From an uncultured Candidatus Saccharibacteria bacterium (GTDB taxonomy: Bacteria; Patescibacteriota; Minisyncoccia; Phycocordibacterales; PALSA-1337), in the NCBI GenBank assembly GCA_964492835.1, contig CAZBLC010000002.1, positions 7,375-71,374 of the forward strand: a stretch of 64,000 nucleotides of DNA. Direction: 5' to 3'. Position numbers and translations under genes: made by a program. The notes beneath the pieces were generated by a model. That model saw nothing but the letters and a program-made list of their open reading frames with translations. It was not told where the DNA came from and did no database searches. This document shows positions 543 through 5,622 of this stretch, in pieces (positions within the stretch are counted from its first letter, which is position 1; the number at the start of each line of letters is the position of its first letter).

Positions 543-2687
543 CTATTTCCTTGTCTCAACAATAGCTGCCTCTACGTTCTTTGGAACTACTTCATAGTGA
601 TCAAATTCCATAGTTGCACTTCCCTGACCTGATGTCATTGAACGCAATTGTGTTGTGTATCCGAACATCTCTGACAATGGAACCATAGCGTGTAGCACCT
701 TTGCCTGTCCTCTCTCTGTCATTTCTTCAATTGTTCCTCTCTTTGATGAAATACTTCCTGTAACATCTCCCATGAACTTCTCTGGGAATAGTACTTCAAG
801 CTTCATGATAGGTTCTAGGATAACTGGACGAGCTCTCTTTGCTGCTTCTTGGAATGCTTGTGATCCAGCAATCTTGTAAGCAATTTCAGATGAGTCCACG
901 TCGTGGTATGATCCGAATGTTAGTTCACAACTTACATTCACCATTCTAAATCCGGCAACTACTCCACGATCCATAGCCTCATGTACTCCCTTCTCTACAG
1001 CTGGAATGAACTCATTTGGAATAACTCCTCCCTTGATTGAGTCGATGAATTCAAAGTCATCATATCTACTAACATTCTTAGGAATCTTCACTCCTGGCTC
1101 AATCTTCTCCATAGGCTTAATATTGATCTTTACGTGACCATATTGTCCCTTACCTCCAGACTGCTTGATGTACTTGTGTTCAGCCTCAGCAGTACCTAGA
1201 ATTGTCTCTCTGTATGCTACCTGTGGCTTACCAACGTTAGTCTCTACTCCGAACTCTCTCTTCATACGATCAACCATGATGTCTAGGTGTAGCTCACCCA
1301 TACCTGAGATGATTGTCTCTCCTGTCTCACTGTTTGATGAGATCTTGAATGTTGGATCTTCATTAGCAAGCTTCTTAAGAGCCATACCCATTTTCTCTTG
1401 ATCTGCCTTTGTCTTTGGTTCAACTCTTAGAGATACCACTGGTTCTAGGAATTTGATAGTTTCAAGTATTACTGGCTTGTTCTCATCACAGAATGTGTGT
1501 GATGTAAGAGCATCCTTTAGTCCTACAGCAGCTGCAATCTCTCCTGCGTATACTTTCTTCACCTCCTCTCTCTTGTCTGCCTGTAGACGCACTATACGTC
1601 CTAATCTCTCCTTCTTTCCAGTTGTCGAGTTGTAAATGTATGTTCCTGATTCAATTGTTCCAGAATATACACGGAAGAATGTAAGCTGACCTACGAATGG
1701 ATCGTTTTGTAATTTAAATGCTAGAGCTGCAAATGGCTCTTCGTCAGAAGGTCCACGGAATATCTCTTCTCCCGTATTAGGATCTGTTCCTCTAACAGCC
1801 TTAATATCTGTAGGAGCTGGTAGATAGTCAACAACAGCATCTAGTACTAGCTGAACTCCAACGTTCTTTAGAGCTGATCCAGTGAATACTGGGAACATCT
1901 TGTTGTCGATAACTAGTTTTCTGATTTCTGTCTTTAGAACATCTACTGGTATCTCCTTTCCATCTAGGTACTGTTGCATTAGAACATCGTTATGCTCAAC
2001 TGCCTTCTCAACTAGTTCAGCATGATATTTCTTAGCATCAGCTAGTAGGTTCTCAGGGATTTCCTTCTCGATGATGTTAATACCCTTCTCTCCGTCAAAG
2101 AAATATGCCTTCATCTTTAGAAGATCTACAACTCCTTCATGATCTCCTTCTGTTCCAACTGGGATTTGGAATCTTACTGCCTTCTTGTTTAGTCTCTCTA
2201 GAATAGATGCATATGATTTCTCAAATGATGCTCCCATTCTGTCCATTTTGTTAATGAAACAAAGACGAGGCACATTACTTTCATCTGCATATCTCCAGTT
2301 TGTCTCTGATTGAGGCTCTACTCCGGCTACTCCGTCAAACACCACAACAGCTCCGTCTAGAACACGTAGTGAACGCTTCACCTCTACTGTAAAGTCGATG
2401 TGTCCTGGAGTATCGATAACGTTAAAACGTACTTTCTTTGAAGTATCTGTCTTAGGCATGTATGAAGGGTTCCAGAAACAAGTAATAGCAGCTGCGGTAA
2501 TTGTAATACCACGCTCTCTCTCCTGTTCCATCCAGTCAGTAGTTGTCGCTCCGTCATGCACCTCTCCAATCTTATGGATCATACCTGTGTAATACAGAAT
2601 ACGTTCTGATGTAGTAGTCTTACCTGCATCAATATGGGCAATGATTCCGAAGTTACGAACTTTTTCTAGTGGATAGTCTCTTTGCAT
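543..2687 (-). CDS. fusA: translation elongation factor G
   Basis: 714 aa. N-terminal GTPase motifs AHIDAGKTT, DTPGH, NKMD. Length and architecture match EF-G. Follows rpsG/rpsL as in the str operon. Confidence 0.95.
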   Translation of the reverse strand: MQRDYPLEKVRNFGIIAHIDAGKTTTSERILYYTGMIHKIGEVHDGATTTDWMEQERERGITITAAAITCFWNPSYMPKTDTSKKVRFNVIDTPGHIDFTVEVKRSLRVLDGAVVVFDGVAGVEPQSETNWRYADESNVPRLCFINKMDRMGASFEKSYASILERLNKKAVRFQIPVGTEGDHEGVVDLLKMKAYFFDGEKGINIIEKEIPENLLADAKKYHAELVEKAVEHNDVLMQQYLDGKEIPVDVLKTEIRKLVIDNKMFPVFTGSALKNVGVQLVLDAVVDYLPAPTDIKAVRGTDPNTGEEIFRGPSDEEPFAALAFKLQNDPFVGQLTFFRVYSGTIESGTYIYNSTTGKKERLGRIVRLQADKREEVKKVYAGEIAAAVGLKDALTSHTFCDENKPVILETIKFLEPVVSLRVEPKTKADQEKMGMALKKLANEDPTFKISSNSETGETIISGMGELHLDIMVDRMKREFGVETNVGKPQVAYRETILGTAEAEHKYIKQSGGKGQYGHVKINIKPMEKIEPGVKIPKNVSRYDDFEFIDSIKGGVIPNEFIPAVEKGVHEAMDRGVVAGFRMVNVSCELTFGSYHDVDSSEIAYKIAGSQAFQEAAKRARPVILEPIMKLEVLFPEKFMGDVTGSISSKRGTIEEMTERGQAKVLHAMVPLSEMFGYTTQLRSMTSGQGSATMEFDHYEVVPKNVEAAIVETRK

Positions 2688-2754
2688 AAATTAAATTAAT
2701 ATAATAAGAAGTAACAGTTAGATTACCTTAAATTGGGATAAAATGCAAAATTTG

Positions 2755-3276
2755 TTATGAGTTAAACCCAATTTTATTACTTTTCTTTATAGGTTCGTCT
2801 AGCAGTCTCTTTATAAAATCATATATTGTAGCTATGTCCTTACCTTGATCTTCTTGGTTTTTCTCCAATTCTTCCATCTTTATAGCCAGATCCTTGTGGG
2901 TAGATAGCATTTCTCTGAGTTTAGCGAATGCTCTGATTATGAATATATTCATCTGTACCGCCCTATCACTCTTAAGTACTGAGGAAAGCATACCGACTCC
3001 GAGTTCGGTGAATGCGTATGGCAAGTATCTACGTCCCCCCTTTGAGATTGCAATTTGCAATCTCAAAGAATCCAACTCAACTTGAGTAAGCTGAAACATA
3101 AAATCCTCTGGAAATCTGTCCATATTACGCTTAACAGCCAGGTTTAAGTTACCAGTTTTAACTTGGTATAACTCGGCCAAAACAAAGTCCAGCATCACTT
3201 TCTGTCCGCGAATTATAAATATTCGCTTCTCTATTATTTCAGACGGAATTGTACTTAATTCTTTCTCTTCTTTCAT
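2755..3276 (-). CDS. ORF6N/KilA-N-like (phage antirepressor N-terminal type) DNA-binding domain protein
   Basis: 173 aa. Central segment RGQKVMLDFVLAELYQV...NLAVKRNMDRFPEDFMFQLT...RRYLPYAFTELGVGMLSSVLKSDRAVQMNIFIIRAF resembles the ORF6N/KilA-N fold found in phage antirepressor-like proteins. Sits between rpsG and fusA. Confidence 0.55.
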   Translation of the reverse strand: MKEEKELSTIPSEIIEKRIFIIRGQKVMLDFVLAELYQVKTGNLNLAVKRNMDRFPEDFMFQLTQVELDSLRLQIAISKGGRRYLPYAFTELGVGMLSSVLKSDRAVQMNIFIIRAFAKLREMLSTHKDLAIKMEELEKNQEDQGKDIATIYDFIKRLLDEPIKKSNKIGFNS

Positions 3277-3397
3277 GTAAGAATTATGACAAATGTGATA
3301 GTAATATCAATACTAAAAAATACAAAAATTTTATCCAGATTTCATTTCGTGGGGATAACTTTTGATTCGTTACGGAAATTTGTTAAAATACTAACAA

Positions 3398-3646
3398 ATG
3401 AGTAAGAAATCTTCGAAAATAACAGAGGATACGTTCAATTGGTGTTTTGCTATCATTAATGGAAAACTTGGACAAATATTTTTTAAGAAAGGATCGAGGA
3501 GTGTCGAGGGTATATTTGGTCATAGTTATCATAGCAAAAAAGATATTTTTAGTGCTGAAGAAAAGAAGATGATTGGTAGTGATATTAAGAAGCATCAGTT
3601 CTCCTTTCGAAAAGGAAAGTATAATCGAGTTAATGTTCCTGTTTGA
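3398..3646 (+). CDS. small basic hypothetical protein (uncertain)
   Basis: 82-aa Lys-rich ORF in the 550-bp spacer between ORF6N gene and rpsG. Ends exactly at the first palindrome of the hairpin array. No homology recognised. Confidence 0.2.
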   Translation: MSKKSSKITEDTFNWCFAIINGKLGQIFFKKGSRSVEGIFGHSYHSKKDIFSAEEKKMIGSDIKKHQFSFRKGKYNRVNVPV

Positions 3647-3810
3647 GGCTGCAAATTGCAGCCTCAAACTTGATATTGCAATTTGCAATCTCAAGTTGAA
3701 GTATCTCTGAGGTGCCAATTTGACGCCTCAGAACTTGGTATTCCAATCTGGAATACCAAGTTAAATAAAAATACCTTTGAGGTTTCAGATTGAAACTTCA
3801 AAGGTATTTT
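3641..3810. repeat. tandem array of five inverted repeats (25-44 bp) with CAAnTTG-type centres
   Basis: Palindromes read directly from the sequence. 3641-3669 is gtttgaggctgcaaattgcagcctcaaac. 3669-3695 is cttgatattgcaatttgcaatctcaag. 3706-3731 is ctgaggtgccaatttgacgcctcag. 3734-3760 is cttggtattccaatctggaataccaag. 3767-3810 is aaaatacctttgaggtttcagattgaaacttcaaaggtatttt. A sixth near-identical copy (ctttgagattgcaatttgcaatctcaaag, 3041-3070) lies inside the ORF6N coding region. Confidence 0.8.
3767..3810 (-). terminator. rho-independent terminator candidate downstream of rpsG (also the last palindrome of the array)
   Basis: About 20-bp stem with a 3-nt loop 20 nt downstream of the rpsG stop, followed on the minus strand by a U-rich tract (uuuuauuuaac). 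Confidence 0.5.
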
Positions 3811-3829
3811 TAATATAGTATTTTTGGTA

Positions 3830-4300
3830 TTACCAAGCAAAGTGAGCGAATGCCTTGTTTGCCTCTGCCATCTTGTGTGTATTCTCTCTCTTCTTTACTG
3901 CTTCTCCTTCGTTCTTTGATGCTGCAAATATTTCTTCTGCTAGTTTTTCTGCCATTGGCTTACCTTTCTTTGAACGAGCAGCTAGAACTATCCACTTCAT
4001 TGATAGGGCTCTCTGTCTCTCTGGACGAACTTCACGAGGAACTTGATAGTTAGCACCTCCAACACGTCTAGCACGTACTTCCATTGCTGGCATAGTGTTC
4101 TTTAGAGCTGTCTCGAATACTTCAAGAGCGTTATCTGTCTTAGCCTTTTCCTTTATTATCTCAAAACAATCGTATACAACCTTTCTAGCTGTAGCCTTCT
4201 TTCCTGAGTCCATAACATAGTTAATTAGCTTTGAAACCTTTACGGATTCAAAAACAGGTTCAGGTTTTAATGGATGCTTGTTCTTTATTCTTCTTCTCAT
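3830..4300 (-). CDS. rpsG: 30S ribosomal protein S7
   Basis: 156 aa. Typical S7 sequence (…[12 protein letters not shown]…). Position between rpsL and fusA. Confidence 0.95.
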
Positions 4301-4331
4301 AGTGATATTTTAATATTTTAGTAATTTAACA

Positions 4332-4751
4332 TTAAACCTTAGCTGCCTTTGGCTTCTTGTTTCCGTATTGACTTCGACCCTTTCTTCTCTTCTCTACTCC
4401 AGCTGCATCTAGAACTCCGCGAACAACTGTGTATCTTAGTCCTACGTCCTTTACACGTCCTCCTCTTAGTAGTACCACTGAGTGTTCCTGTAGGTTATGT
4501 CCTTCTCCTGGGATGTAAGCTGTAACTTCAAGACCATTTGATAGTCTTACACGGGCAATCTTACGGATAGCTGAGTTAGGCTTCTTAGGTGTCTTTGTTG
4601 TAACCTTTATACAAACTCCTCTCTTAAATGGAGATGGAAAGAAGCTAGGACGATTCTCAATACTATTGAAAGTTCGTGTTAGAGCTACTGACTTTGTCTT
4701 TCTGATAAATTTCTTACGATTCTTACGCACAAGCTGATTAATTGTTGGCAT
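4332..4751 (-). CDS. rpsL: 30S ribosomal protein S12
   Basis: 139 aa starting [10 protein letters not shown]…, conserved S12 core (…PKKPNSA(I/L)RK…). Confidence 0.95.
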
Positions 4752-4890
4752 TCTTAAATGTTATTTATTTAAAACTTAATAATTTACCCAAATATGTCTA
4801 GAGTTGATTGTTTTCACCGAGCGGTTACTCACCTCTATACGTTTTTGGACGTGGGGTTACTCTATCACAAATATGGGAAAAGGCAATTAT

Positions 4891-5622
4891 TTATCTAAGA
4901 ATGACCTTACCGACAATATCTTTAATATTAACCGGACCAAGAGTCTTTGAATCCAAACTAGCAGCTGAATTGTCTCCTAGAACAAAGTACTCCCCTTCTT
5001 TTAAATCAACAACTAGCTCTGCAGGGATTGGGGTTGATAAATACTTGTCCTCAACCAAGAGTTCGTTGATGTATAGCTGTCCATTCTCTATCTTTAGCTT
5101 TTCGCCTGGTAAACCAACGATACGATTTACAAAATAAACCCCGTAGATATTTTTAAACACAACAACATCATTTCTCTTATAATTATTTAAAAATATTTTA
5201 ATAACGAGATATTCCCCATCATTAATATTTGGTGTCATAGAATTACCAGATACCACAAAAGGCTGAAAAATAAACAATCTAACTGACATAACAATAGCTG
5301 TTAGGATTAATATTCCAAGTATGTTATTGGTGATATAAAGTAAAAAACTTTTTATCCAAGAAACTTGATAATATTTTTTAAAATATAAATAAAATATGAA
5401 GTAAGCTGCCCCAATTGTAGATATATATACAAAAGGATCTTTAATTAAAAAAAGAAATGCAAATAAATTTAAAGGGGCTCCTAATAAATTAATAAGTACT
5501 ACTTTTTTATATGATATTTCTTTTATTCTAAATAGTTTACAAATACCTAATAAAATTAATGAGCTAATTAGAAATAATATTAATGAAGATATATATGTGA
5601 TAGTTATTATAGGTAATGTCAT
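4891..5622 (-). CDS. lepB: signal peptidase I (S26 family) with extended multi-TM N-terminus
   Basis: C-terminal half has SGNSM (Ser box) …VVVF…NRIVGLPGE… and GDNSAASLDS motifs of LepB. N-terminal 100 aa is hydrophobic. Confidence 0.8.
   Translation of the reverse strand: MTLPIITITYISSLILFLISSLILLGICKLFRIKEISYKKVVLINLLGAPLNLFAFLFLIKDPFVYISTIGAAYFIFYLYFKKYYQVSWIKSFLLYITNNILGILILTAIVMSVRLFIFQPFVVSGNSMTPNINDGEYLVIKIFLNNYKRNDVVVFKNIYGVYFVNRIVGLPGEKLKIENGQLYINELLVEDKYLSTPIPAELVVDLKEGEYFVLGDNSAASLDSKTLGPVNIKDIVGKVILR

Follow-up and report, generated by a model that had tools for sequence, protein, structure and literature searches.

The DNA analysed here (the window, 64,000 nucleotides of contig CAZBLC010000002.1) comes from an uncultured Candidatus Saccharibacteria bacterium and carries, between the str operon genes rpsG and fusA, a gene for a 173-amino-acid (aa) protein with an ORF6N domain. 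Inside the coding sequence of this gene lies a perfect 29-bp palindrome, the position of which is shared with most of its homologues and the variable bases of which are predicted by a few residues of the encoded protein. We therefore lean towards a model in which a coiled-coil dimer of the ORF6N protein binds an operator within its own gene, probably for promoter-independent autoregulation. Binding of the palindrome by the protein is predicted with good confidence from the sequence comparisons, and autoregulation as the purpose of that binding is somewhat favoured. The locus as a whole is an old, dispensable ORF6N module with its predicted self-operator, accompanied by an unrelated small accessory gene and a palindrome array of mixed specificity. 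A sequence-only reading of the same DNA had placed the ORF6N gene and a spacer between rpsG and fusA on the operon strand; the order rpsL, rpsG, spacer, ORF6N gene and fusA, all genes on the minus strand, was confirmed.

A palindrome conserved within the coding sequence

The palindromes of the spacer, numbered P1 to P5 in Table 1, belong to the same family as the perfect 29-bp palindrome inside the ORF6N coding sequence. Among genome homologues, 95 of 98 (from 80 GTDB loci) have a palindrome centred on the identical base, at first position in the codon that follows Q74, and the same codon position was found in 80 of 85 metagenome homologues and in most viral homologues. Pairing was scored for a 14-bp helix in an alignment of 94 distinct 41-nt segments (alignment A1). 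Paired cells made up 92% of this alignment; shuffles gave 74% and slid controls 27-46%. Changes on both sides occurred in 13 of the 14 arm pairs, and compensatory cells numbered 266, versus 94 in shuffles. The compensating changes at second and third codon positions alter amino acids (S..A, S..V, F..G, F..E, C..G, L..A). The same palindrome core (GGTCGCAAATTGCGACC in L043b and GATCACAAACTGTGATC in L049b) recurs in a second ORF6N subfamily, the genes of which often stand in tandem with those of the first; there it is read one base out of frame, as EVVANCDHL versus LRSQIATS, with the flanking protein still alignable. Because the compensating changes alter residues and the second subfamily reads the core out of frame, the conserved object is the DNA and not the peptide.

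In the AlphaFold model the palindrome encodes the end of helix 65-75 and a loop of low confidence (predicted local distance difference test, pLDDT, about 60). Three loci (L039, L062 and L095) have a tandem second palindrome inside the coding sequence, with differing stems and a loop longer by 9-17 codons. The model fits a permissive surface region at this place, and the tandem insertions agree with it. On a Legionella pneumophila plasmid (L093), an ORF6N protein of 298 aa carries an additional domain at its C-terminus. Its cognate palindrome occurs twice, at 3181-3211 in the gene and, nearly identical, at 3894-3924, 18 nt 3′ of the stop codon, so that the two sites bracket the 3′ part of the gene.

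A residue-to-base code

Mutual information was computed between the variable palindrome bases and every protein column. The partners of the inner dinucleotide were residues 46 (z = 35, 1.96 bit), 43 (z = 21) and 47 (z = 15), and those of the outer dinucleotide residues 42 (z = 16) and 84 (z = 15), with z ≤ 6 for the remaining columns. The variable bases were more informative on residue 46 than on the residues that they themselves encode. Tabulated on 175 genes, the code was near one-to-one. At 4 nt from the centre, A occurs with Q46 (53/55), C with K46 or R46 (61/64), G with E46 (43/51) and T with L46 (5/5). At 5 nt, T occurs with N43 (32/49) and C with R43 (R in 43 genes), V or A, while G at 7 nt accompanies K42 (100/109) and G at 8 nt accompanies Y84 (111/122). 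These pairings are the canonical side-chain preferences in DNA recognition: Gln with A, Lys or Arg with an opposite-strand G, Glu with C and Asn with A. Residues 42, 43, 46 and 47 lie on one face of the helix predicted by AlphaFold at residues 41-50, and the window protein (TGNLNLAV) predicts the half-site TTGA-GA-T-TG-CAA, which the site in its own coding sequence fits perfectly. Across ORF6N homologues there are at least seven inner specificity classes.

A phylogenetic artefact was rejected on the strength of two held-out sets and of a stratification by background identity. At every level of background identity, gene pairs had the same residue 46 at a frequency of 0.66-0.93 if the base was the same, versus 0.02-0.06 if it differed. 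The inner dinucleotide was predicted correctly in 68 of 80 held-out metagenome genes (permutation mean 19, maximum 31) and in 34 of 36 distinct combinations held out from viral contigs. By eye, the code was also correct in Legionella, Butyrivibrio and Bacteroides plasmid genes and in the out-of-frame subfamily. Pairing of the helix codons with the palindrome was likewise considered as the cause of the covariation. First codon bases G, C, A, C/A and C/T accompany the dinucleotides CG, CA, TC, GC and TG/TT, respectively, yet inspection showed no consistent complementarity, and amino-acid chemistry fits instead.

The ORF6N protein

The 173-aa protein had been described from sequence alone as ORF6N/KilA-N-like, and the profile search upheld the first half of that name. 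A Pfam scan matched the ORF6N domain (PF10543) at residues 18-100, covering model positions 2-86 of 86, with 112 bits against a cut-off of 27.8 (E = 1.7e-32), whereas KilA-N (PF04383) gave no match at E ≤ 1. Any relationship between ORF6N and KilA-N reportedly lies at the superfamily level only, as Iyer et al. are said to have concluded in 2002. In the same scan Rha (PF09669) stayed below threshold (14 bits against a cut-off of 29.9, E = 0.077), and NCBIfam held no family for the protein. The ORF6N domain is widespread, with at least 8,000 relatives scored in one search, yet has essentially no experimental characterisation.

The core motifs RFPxDFMF and PYAFTExG are present. In an alignment of 93 sequences (alignment A2), R54, F55, P56, D58, F59, F89 and G93 are invariant, and M60, F61, P86, Y87, T90 and E91 are at least 90% conserved. 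The helix at 41-50 stands directly N-terminal to the motif AVKRNxxRFP, in which R50, N51, R54, F55 and P56 are invariant and V48 is at least 90% conserved. In the AlphaFold model (mean pLDDT 81), a small alpha/beta domain leads into a single long helix, 104-159. The DNA-binding domain is probably winged-helix-like, and the long C-terminal helix is presumed to act as a coiled-coil dimeriser.

Proposed mechanism and its precedents

The predicted target is a palindrome of roughly 25 bp, TTGA-NN-T-NN-CAA-W-TTG-NN-A-NN-TCAA, which would be read directly in the major groove. Residue 46 would read the base 4 nt from the centre, residue 43 that at 5 nt, residue 42 that at 7 nt and Tyr84, in a loop or 'wing', that at 8 nt. 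The dimer would be held by the C-terminal helix, and the symmetric covariation of the two arms would reflect co-evolution of reader and site. Once bound within the coding sequence, the dimer would stop RNA polymerase during elongation, some 220 nt from the start of the gene, and so exert negative autoregulation; looping to the spacer palindromes P1 and P2, 600-630 bp upstream, may assist. We infer both the dimerisation and the roadblock or looping outcome. Only about 70 nt separate the operator from the codons for the reading helix, and it would travel with the coding sequence; because it lies inside that sequence, control would be independent of the incoming promoter. Such promoter-independent self-control would suit a solitary accessory gene in strong operons (rpsG, recA, rpsP).

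Regulatory sites inside the gene of their own binding protein are already known. A parS palindrome is said to lie inside spo0J, the ParB gene (reportedly described by Lin and Grossman in 1998); parS serves chromosome segregation with ParA and has many further sites elsewhere. LacI autoregulates through a roadblock at O3 (PMC3711431). Neither ParB/parS nor LacI O3 has a codon position fixed across a family or a diversified code between reader and site. There is also a close likeness to C.Kpn2I, which binds within its own coding region, stalls the elongating RNA polymerase and so limits its own mRNA, an arrangement that its authors considered might be widespread among C.Kpn2I-like proteins (PMC6237814). 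In both cases the coding sequence contains a site that suits the specificity of the encoded protein; here the link is computational, through the residue-to-base code, and the binding predicted. C.Kpn2I is a restriction-modification-linked protein of the XRE helix-turn-helix type, while the window protein is ORF6N; no homology to the C-protein type of XRE helix-turn-helix was found, the Pfam scan giving ORF6N only. The C.Kpn2I site stands at the very start of its gene and is without an obvious long palindrome, whereas the ORF6N site is a perfect palindrome of 25-29 bp about 220 nt in. A codon position fixed across phyla and at least seven specificity classes further distinguish ORF6N. Neither a cognate site nor a recognition code for the ORF6N/KilA-N family was found in the searched literature, nor was the ORF6N case of an operator in its own gene, and the palindrome sequences were not found in any relevant paper of that literature.

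Palindromes beside ORF6N genes and points against the model

Palindromes of the family also occur outside coding sequences. A family pattern gave three matches in the window, with none expected, and in 620 kb of loci there were 41 extra palindromes versus about 0.15 expected, nearly all of them adjoining ORF6N genes. In the combined set, 44 palindromes stand at most 600 nt upstream of the gene, mostly 15-170 nt before the aligned start. Fully cognate proximal copies were found in L102, L107, L113, L137, L051, L153 and Butyrivibrio, and by their sequence and placement these look like autoregulatory operators. In the window, P2 equals the palindrome of the coding sequence at 24 of 25 positions, and the left-arm core of P3, GAGGTGCCAA, is identical to that of the single upstream palindrome of L005, one of the loci with an ORF6N gene at the same site.

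Several of these results, and some from the structural searches, weigh against self-regulation by a duplex-bound dimer. Cognate on both arms are 16 of the 44 upstream palindromes, versus 9.8 by chance (p about 0.02). P1 and P2 match the inner TG of the window protein, and P3 (GC/GT), P4 (TC) and P5 (TT) do not; because these three belong to other classes, simple self-operators do not explain the arrays, and we suspect that P3-P5 are sites for other ORF6N paralogues. In L026, L157 and L029 (at 4707) the helix type suits the upstream palindrome better than the one in the coding sequence. A sequence search of the PDB returned nothing relevant to the 173-aa protein and no ORF6N-DNA structure, and Foldseek against the PDB gave weak winged-helix-like matches, to Ski/Dachshund DHD and MarR (E about 0.08). 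Finally, a hairpin stem offers the same base pairs as a duplex half-site, and binding to an extruded or single-stranded hairpin is possible.

Alternative explanations

The alternative that survives best, though still unlikely, is that the palindromes function in folded form, as stem-loops of RNA, hairpins of single-stranded DNA or cruciforms, and serve as terminators, attenuators or stabilisers between convergent transcripts, with the link to ORF6N secondary. The spacer had been described as packed with palindromes, and indeed five stand head to tail at 3641-3812; folding of 3630-3830 was very stable relative to shuffles (z = -14 as DNA and -12 as RNA). The array is located where rpsG and a gene for an 82-aa protein converge. 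P1 overlaps the stop codon of the latter and is terminator-like on the plus strand by scan. Just 3′ of the rpsG stop codon, the A and T runs that flank P5 extend its stem to 22 bp; P5 was unscored by the simple terminator scan but, judged by shape alone, may be a bidirectional terminator. Tandem, stable and imperfectly related palindromes at the 3′ ends of convergent genes also resemble clusters of repetitive extragenic palindromes (REP) and bacterial interspersed mosaic elements (BIME) as well as intrinsic terminators. Unlike REP/BIME, however, these palindromes occur only beside or inside ORF6N genes, and the protein encoded alongside predicts their variable bases; genome dispersal of the REP/BIME kind was not seen, since the 64-kb window held no further copies and those in the 620 kb adjoin ORF6N genes.

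Against folding as the main function, the palindromes track ORF6N genes instead of being spread as general terminators, and the copy in the coding sequence is without a U-tract. Mismatches in the arms of the in-gene copies, read on the sense strand, comprise 5 G.T, 18 A.C and 16 of transversion type, so that G.U pairs would be rare in the sense RNA. Nor can folding account for residues 42, 43, 46, 47 and 84 predicting stem bases in the canonical way. A sense-strand RNA hairpin was ruled out by the scarcity of G.U pairs together with the protein-residue code. That the stems vary among copies yet remain self-complementary might be taken as proof of hairpin folding; this argument is weakened by the prediction of stem bases from residues and is kept for the non-cognate copies. 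Two results favour a protein site over a hairpin: G.U pairs were not enriched, and residues and bases shared mutual information. A double role of P1 and P5 is compatible with protein binding, and both may also serve as terminators between the convergent transcripts of rpsG and the 82-aa gene. Counted over in-gene and extragenic copies together, transition mismatches on the sense strand were about 26 A.C versus 7 G.T (8 versus 2 for the extragenic copies, counted by hand). For duplex binding such an A.C excess is meaningless; bias in coding or in mutation, or some part played by the antisense strand, could lie behind it.

Two further RNA-based candidates found no support. In an Rfam scan of 2000-5000 the sole hit, to a microRNA, was at chance level (E = 0.62; 22 bits, gathering score 100). 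Nor does the locus have the pattern of a type III toxin-antitoxin system, in which near-identical direct repeats directly precede the protein gene and are transcribed with it: here the units are palindromes with differing stems, and a divergent gene and a promoter region separate them from the ORF6N gene.

It is also improbable, if worth setting out, that the protein binds the palindromes for another purpose: defence or immunity, sensing or titrating of foreign ORF6N-type regulators, cross-regulation of paralogues, or a centromere-like role. Three PADLOC models of the defence candidate PDC-S05 matched the window protein (PDLC04856, E = 2.2e-55; PDLC04869, E = 2.5e-53; PDLC04849, E = 1.9e-36). 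In the one published test that was found, a PDC-S05 representative with a RhuM domain protected Escherichia coli against T7, T5 and T4, cutting the plating of T7 and T5 about 1000-fold (bioRxiv 10.1101/2024.09.26.614923); RhuM has been predicted as a toxin domain in restriction-modification loci (PMC3710099). The coexistence of at least seven specificity classes, the non-cognate state of 28 of the 44 upstream sites, and the membership of both P3 and the upstream site of L005 in the GC/GG class would also suit cross-talk between ORF6N systems. However, the window protein has only ORF6N and a coiled coil and is without the RhuM domain of the tested protein. Its gene is in a ribosomal operon with housekeeping neighbours and not in a defence island, and there is no second ORF6N gene in the 64-kb window and no partition ATPase nearby. 

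A wider version of the self-operator model, which we regard as tentative and rather less likely than not, would make the ORF6N genes a large, cross-phylum family of 'self-addressed' modules of many orthogonal specificities (at least seven inner by several outer classes), with mixed arrays wiring paralogues and incoming elements into an immunity-like network, perhaps linked to PDC-S05.

We think it quite improbable that the palindrome is a site of recombination or mobility, either a mobile palindromic unit or a crossover point for ORF6N halves comparable to REP/BIME, miniature inverted-repeat transposable elements or the invertase sites of tail-fibre genes, with the upstream arrays as by-products. 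Such an origin would accommodate the additional palindromes, unlike the first in sequence, that stand in tandem within the coding sequences of L039, L062 and the B. ovatus plasmid gene, the upstream copies that lie within ORF6N gene fragments (L010, L021, L023, L037, L069), and the mosaic tandem paralogues (the L049 pair) and arrays of several classes. Yet no recombinase or transposase stood beside the genes at the loci viewed, and the residue-to-base code would be left unexplained. The hix and gix sites of invertases have an even central crossover region, to which the odd-length centre of the palindrome is not suited. An inversion switch between the in-gene site and P2 was rejected as the 82-aa frame ends 36 nt before the P2 centre, giving no in-frame fusion, and no invertase gene is present. 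The spacer held no ORF6N coding remnants: a family hidden Markov model run on the six frames of 3277-3830 matched the palindrome units only, and the idea of decayed ORF6N copies was dropped. Resemblance to integron attC or Xer dif sites was judged unlikely on core sequence and spacer geometry.

The spacer and its small gene

The sequence-only reading had taken the spacer as about 550 bp of noncoding DNA. Its size is as described (553 bp), whereas its noncoding character did not hold, for a conserved 82-aa gene lies on the plus strand (Table 1). A word-indexed search with this protein returned the query alone, as if the open reading frame (ORF) were noise, but an exhaustive search gave 117 representatives at E ≤ 1e-3, with W15, N21, L24 and D62 invariant and the family consensus WCFAIINGRLAEI...GHCYV...DIKK..FTYR.GKY. 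The family has no Pfam entry; its members adjoin a PemK toxin gene or follow glyA, with no ORF6N palindromes nearby.

Between the two divergent genes are two promoter-like sites. One on the minus strand, TTGATA-16-tgCATAAT at 3310-3283, abuts the ORF6N ATG at 3276, and one on the plus strand, TTGATT-16-tgTAAAAT at 3362-3389, abuts the ATG of the 82-aa gene at 3398. The -10 hexamers end 7-9 nt before both ATGs. From this layout, both genes may be expressed as leaderless mRNAs. The region 3277-3397 shares the arrangement TTATCCCCA-N13-GGATAAAATTTTTGT with the spacer of L086, another locus with an ORF6N gene at this site. Downstream, TTTTGCATTT is kept 3′ of the ORF6N stop codon in the window, L086 and L090, and L005 retains only the downstream, TTTTACTGTA-like part. 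The sequence TTGCAT-N17-TAATCT, which was not among the results of the promoter scan, may be a fusA promoter. It had been suggested that expression of the ORF6N gene could be coupled to ribosomal-protein transcription. This now appears doubtful, given the palindromes between rpsG and the gene, the terminator-like form of P1 and P5, and the gene's own promoter-like site.

Table 1. Positions of features in the window and, in the last five rows, of palindromes at other loci.
Feature	Positions	Strand	Basis or remark
rpsL	4332-4751	minus	ORF call
rpsG (ribosomal protein S7), upstream border of the accessory segment	3830-4300	minus	ORF; identical protein in L081-L085
Spacer between rpsG and the ORF6N gene, 553 bp	3277-3829		holds the 82-aa gene on the opposite strand and five palindromes
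Palindrome P5, core 3776-3802, half-sites TTGAGGTTTCA / TTGAAGTTTCA	3766-3812		'TT' class
Palindrome P4, perfect 14-bp arms, half-site TTGGTATTCCA	3732-3762		'TC' class, non-cognate to the window protein
Palindrome P3, imperfect, half-sites CTGAGGTGCCAA / CTGAGGCGTCAA	3707-3731		'GC/GT' class
Palindrome P2, half-sites TTGATATTGCAA / TTGAGATTGCAA	3667-3697		cognate 'TG' inner class
Palindrome P1, perfect 14-bp arms, half-site TTGAGGCTGCAA	3641-3669		cognate 'TG' inner class
82-aa conserved small-protein gene, separate accessory gene	3398-3646	plus	divergent from the ORF6N gene
Divergent promoter-like region	3277-3397		consensus matches only
ORF6N gene, 173 aa	2755-3276	minus	Pfam, PADLOC, AlphaFold
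Codons of helix 41-50 (TGNLNLAVKR)	3127-3156	minus	residues 42, 43, 46 and 47 form the predicted base-reading face
Perfect 29-bp palindrome in the coding sequence, CTTTGAGATTGCAAWTTGCAATCTCAAAG, predicted self-operator	3040-3068		encodes S70-K79 (SLRLQIAISK)
TTGCAT-N17-TAATCT, between the ORF6N stop and fusA, candidate promoter	2720-2748	minus	sequence reading
fusA (elongation factor G), downstream border of the accessory segment	543-2687	minus	ORF; homology to relatives resumes at 2697
Out-of-frame-subfamily palindrome, L043	3432-3464
Out-of-frame-subfamily palindrome, L049	4695-4721
Tandem palindromes in the coding sequence, L039	1169-1222
Tandem palindromes in the coding sequence, L062	1297-1349
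Tandem palindromes in the coding sequence, L095 (Bacteroides ovatus plasmid)	centres 3187 and 3238

History and distribution of the segment

In five contigs encoding an identical S7 protein (L081-L085), with flanking genes at 92-97% nucleotide identity, the gap between rpsG and fusA is 45 nt, in line with the expectation that the two genes are normally adjacent and are separated here. Homology to these contigs breaks at window positions 3831 and 2697. The ORF6N segment is accessory, because near-identical relatives have rpsG and fusA 45 nt apart. The proposal of a mobile or phage-derived insertion into a core operon thus stood as regards the accessory nature of the segment, which the closest relatives do not have, and drew little support as regards a recent, phage-derived origin. 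The sequence-only reading had named the presence of the gene as an old, conserved operon member in related genomes as evidence against it, and such evidence was in part found: orthologues occupy the same site in L086, L090 and L005.

Relatives were sought in a search of 5.8 billion proteins. BLASTP identities were 70% for P0002 and 66% for P0003; the L005 gene reached 62% in tblastn and 60.7% by global alignment. These three best relatives have the identical placement, in the order L28, M50, rpsL, rpsG, ORF6N, fusA. By global alignment the identities for ORF6N (70.5, 68.8 and 60.7%) show a divergence similar to those for the neighbouring M50 gene (72.5, 56.4 and 58.6%). The window, L086 and L090 also have a rare specificity class, 'NLNLAV / TG', in common. 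Because of the same-site orthologues, the M50-like divergence and this shared class, the gene looks like an old resident that was lost in L081-type strains and not a fresh insertion, which is the most economical history. Upstream of the gene, a single palindrome is present in L005 and none in L086, while in L090 a DUF4190 gene takes this place; the 82-aa gene and the palindrome array, which alone are specific to the window, were by the simplest account gained in its lineage.

Relatives of the protein are encoded in 5 of 50,697 phage records, 28 of 72,556 plasmid records and, in IMG/VR, 224 stretches among 2.9 million contigs. Other relatives are solitary genes: they follow recA, lie close to clpP or stand last in a polysaccharide operon. 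With phage antirepressors (ORF6N, KilA-N, Bro-N and Rha N-termini) the protein shares the PF10543 domain, a PHROG match and a predicted DNA-binding N-terminus; it differs in its short form (the domain and a coiled coil), in its chromosomal and solitary place among housekeeping genes, in being almost absent from phage records, and in having no immunity region and no evident repressor partner. The case for a phage origin is weak. A recent antirepressor-type phage insertion that rides on ribosomal-protein transcription, with the palindromes incidental, is very improbable and already largely contradicted: the match to PHROG anti-repressor families (phrog_4792, E = 3.5e-24, limited to model positions 10-128 of 268), the absence of the segment from the closest relatives and the orientation of the gene on the operon strand would agree with it, but the same-site orthologues of neighbour-like divergence and common rare class, the rarity of relatives in phage records, the lack of phage or integrase genes near the ORF6N gene, its own promoter-like site behind terminator-like palindromes, and the family-specific nature of those palindromes all speak against it.

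Neighbouring observations

Between the M50 peptidase gene and rpsL, the window has a signal peptidase I gene (243 aa, 4891-5622, minus strand; TIGR02227, E = 5e-35) that is missing in L081-L085, where homology skips from 5641 to 4889. The gene represents another accessory insertion close to the ORF6N segment. At the corresponding place L090 has a ParD-like gene with an 86-aa partner (1178-1664), and its DUF4190 gene between rpsG and ORF6N occupies 2646-2933. The short spacers of this operon region seem, on such comparisons, to be hot spots for small accessory genes in the clade. About 50 nt past the fusA stop codon, at 457-494, is a perfect palindrome with an 18-bp stem, AATAAAATAACTGGTATTAGTATACCAGTTATTTTATT, an ordinary-looking bidirectional terminator that is not of the ORF6N family.

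Significance

Through this analysis ORF6N, a domain rarely mentioned in the searched literature, gains a testable predicted target site and a residue-to-base code from sequence alone. The rare arrangement of an operator in its own gene would be extended to an unrelated fold, to hundreds of genes and to several phyla. The code could predict the regulons of ORF6N, Rha-like and 'antirepressor' genes and could supply orthogonal repressor-operator pairs for engineering; if the wider, 'self-addressed' version of the model is true, the family itself would be such a set in nature, with a code that is simple to read. For annotation, the lesson is that strong compensatory covariation in a coding sequence can mean co-evolution of protein-DNA specificity and not RNA structure. 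The candidate phyla radiation comprises ultra-small, mostly uncultured bacteria such as the Saccharibacteria, and self-control by an operator carried within the gene would explain how a solitary accessory gene is tolerated in a strongly transcribed operon of so small a genome.

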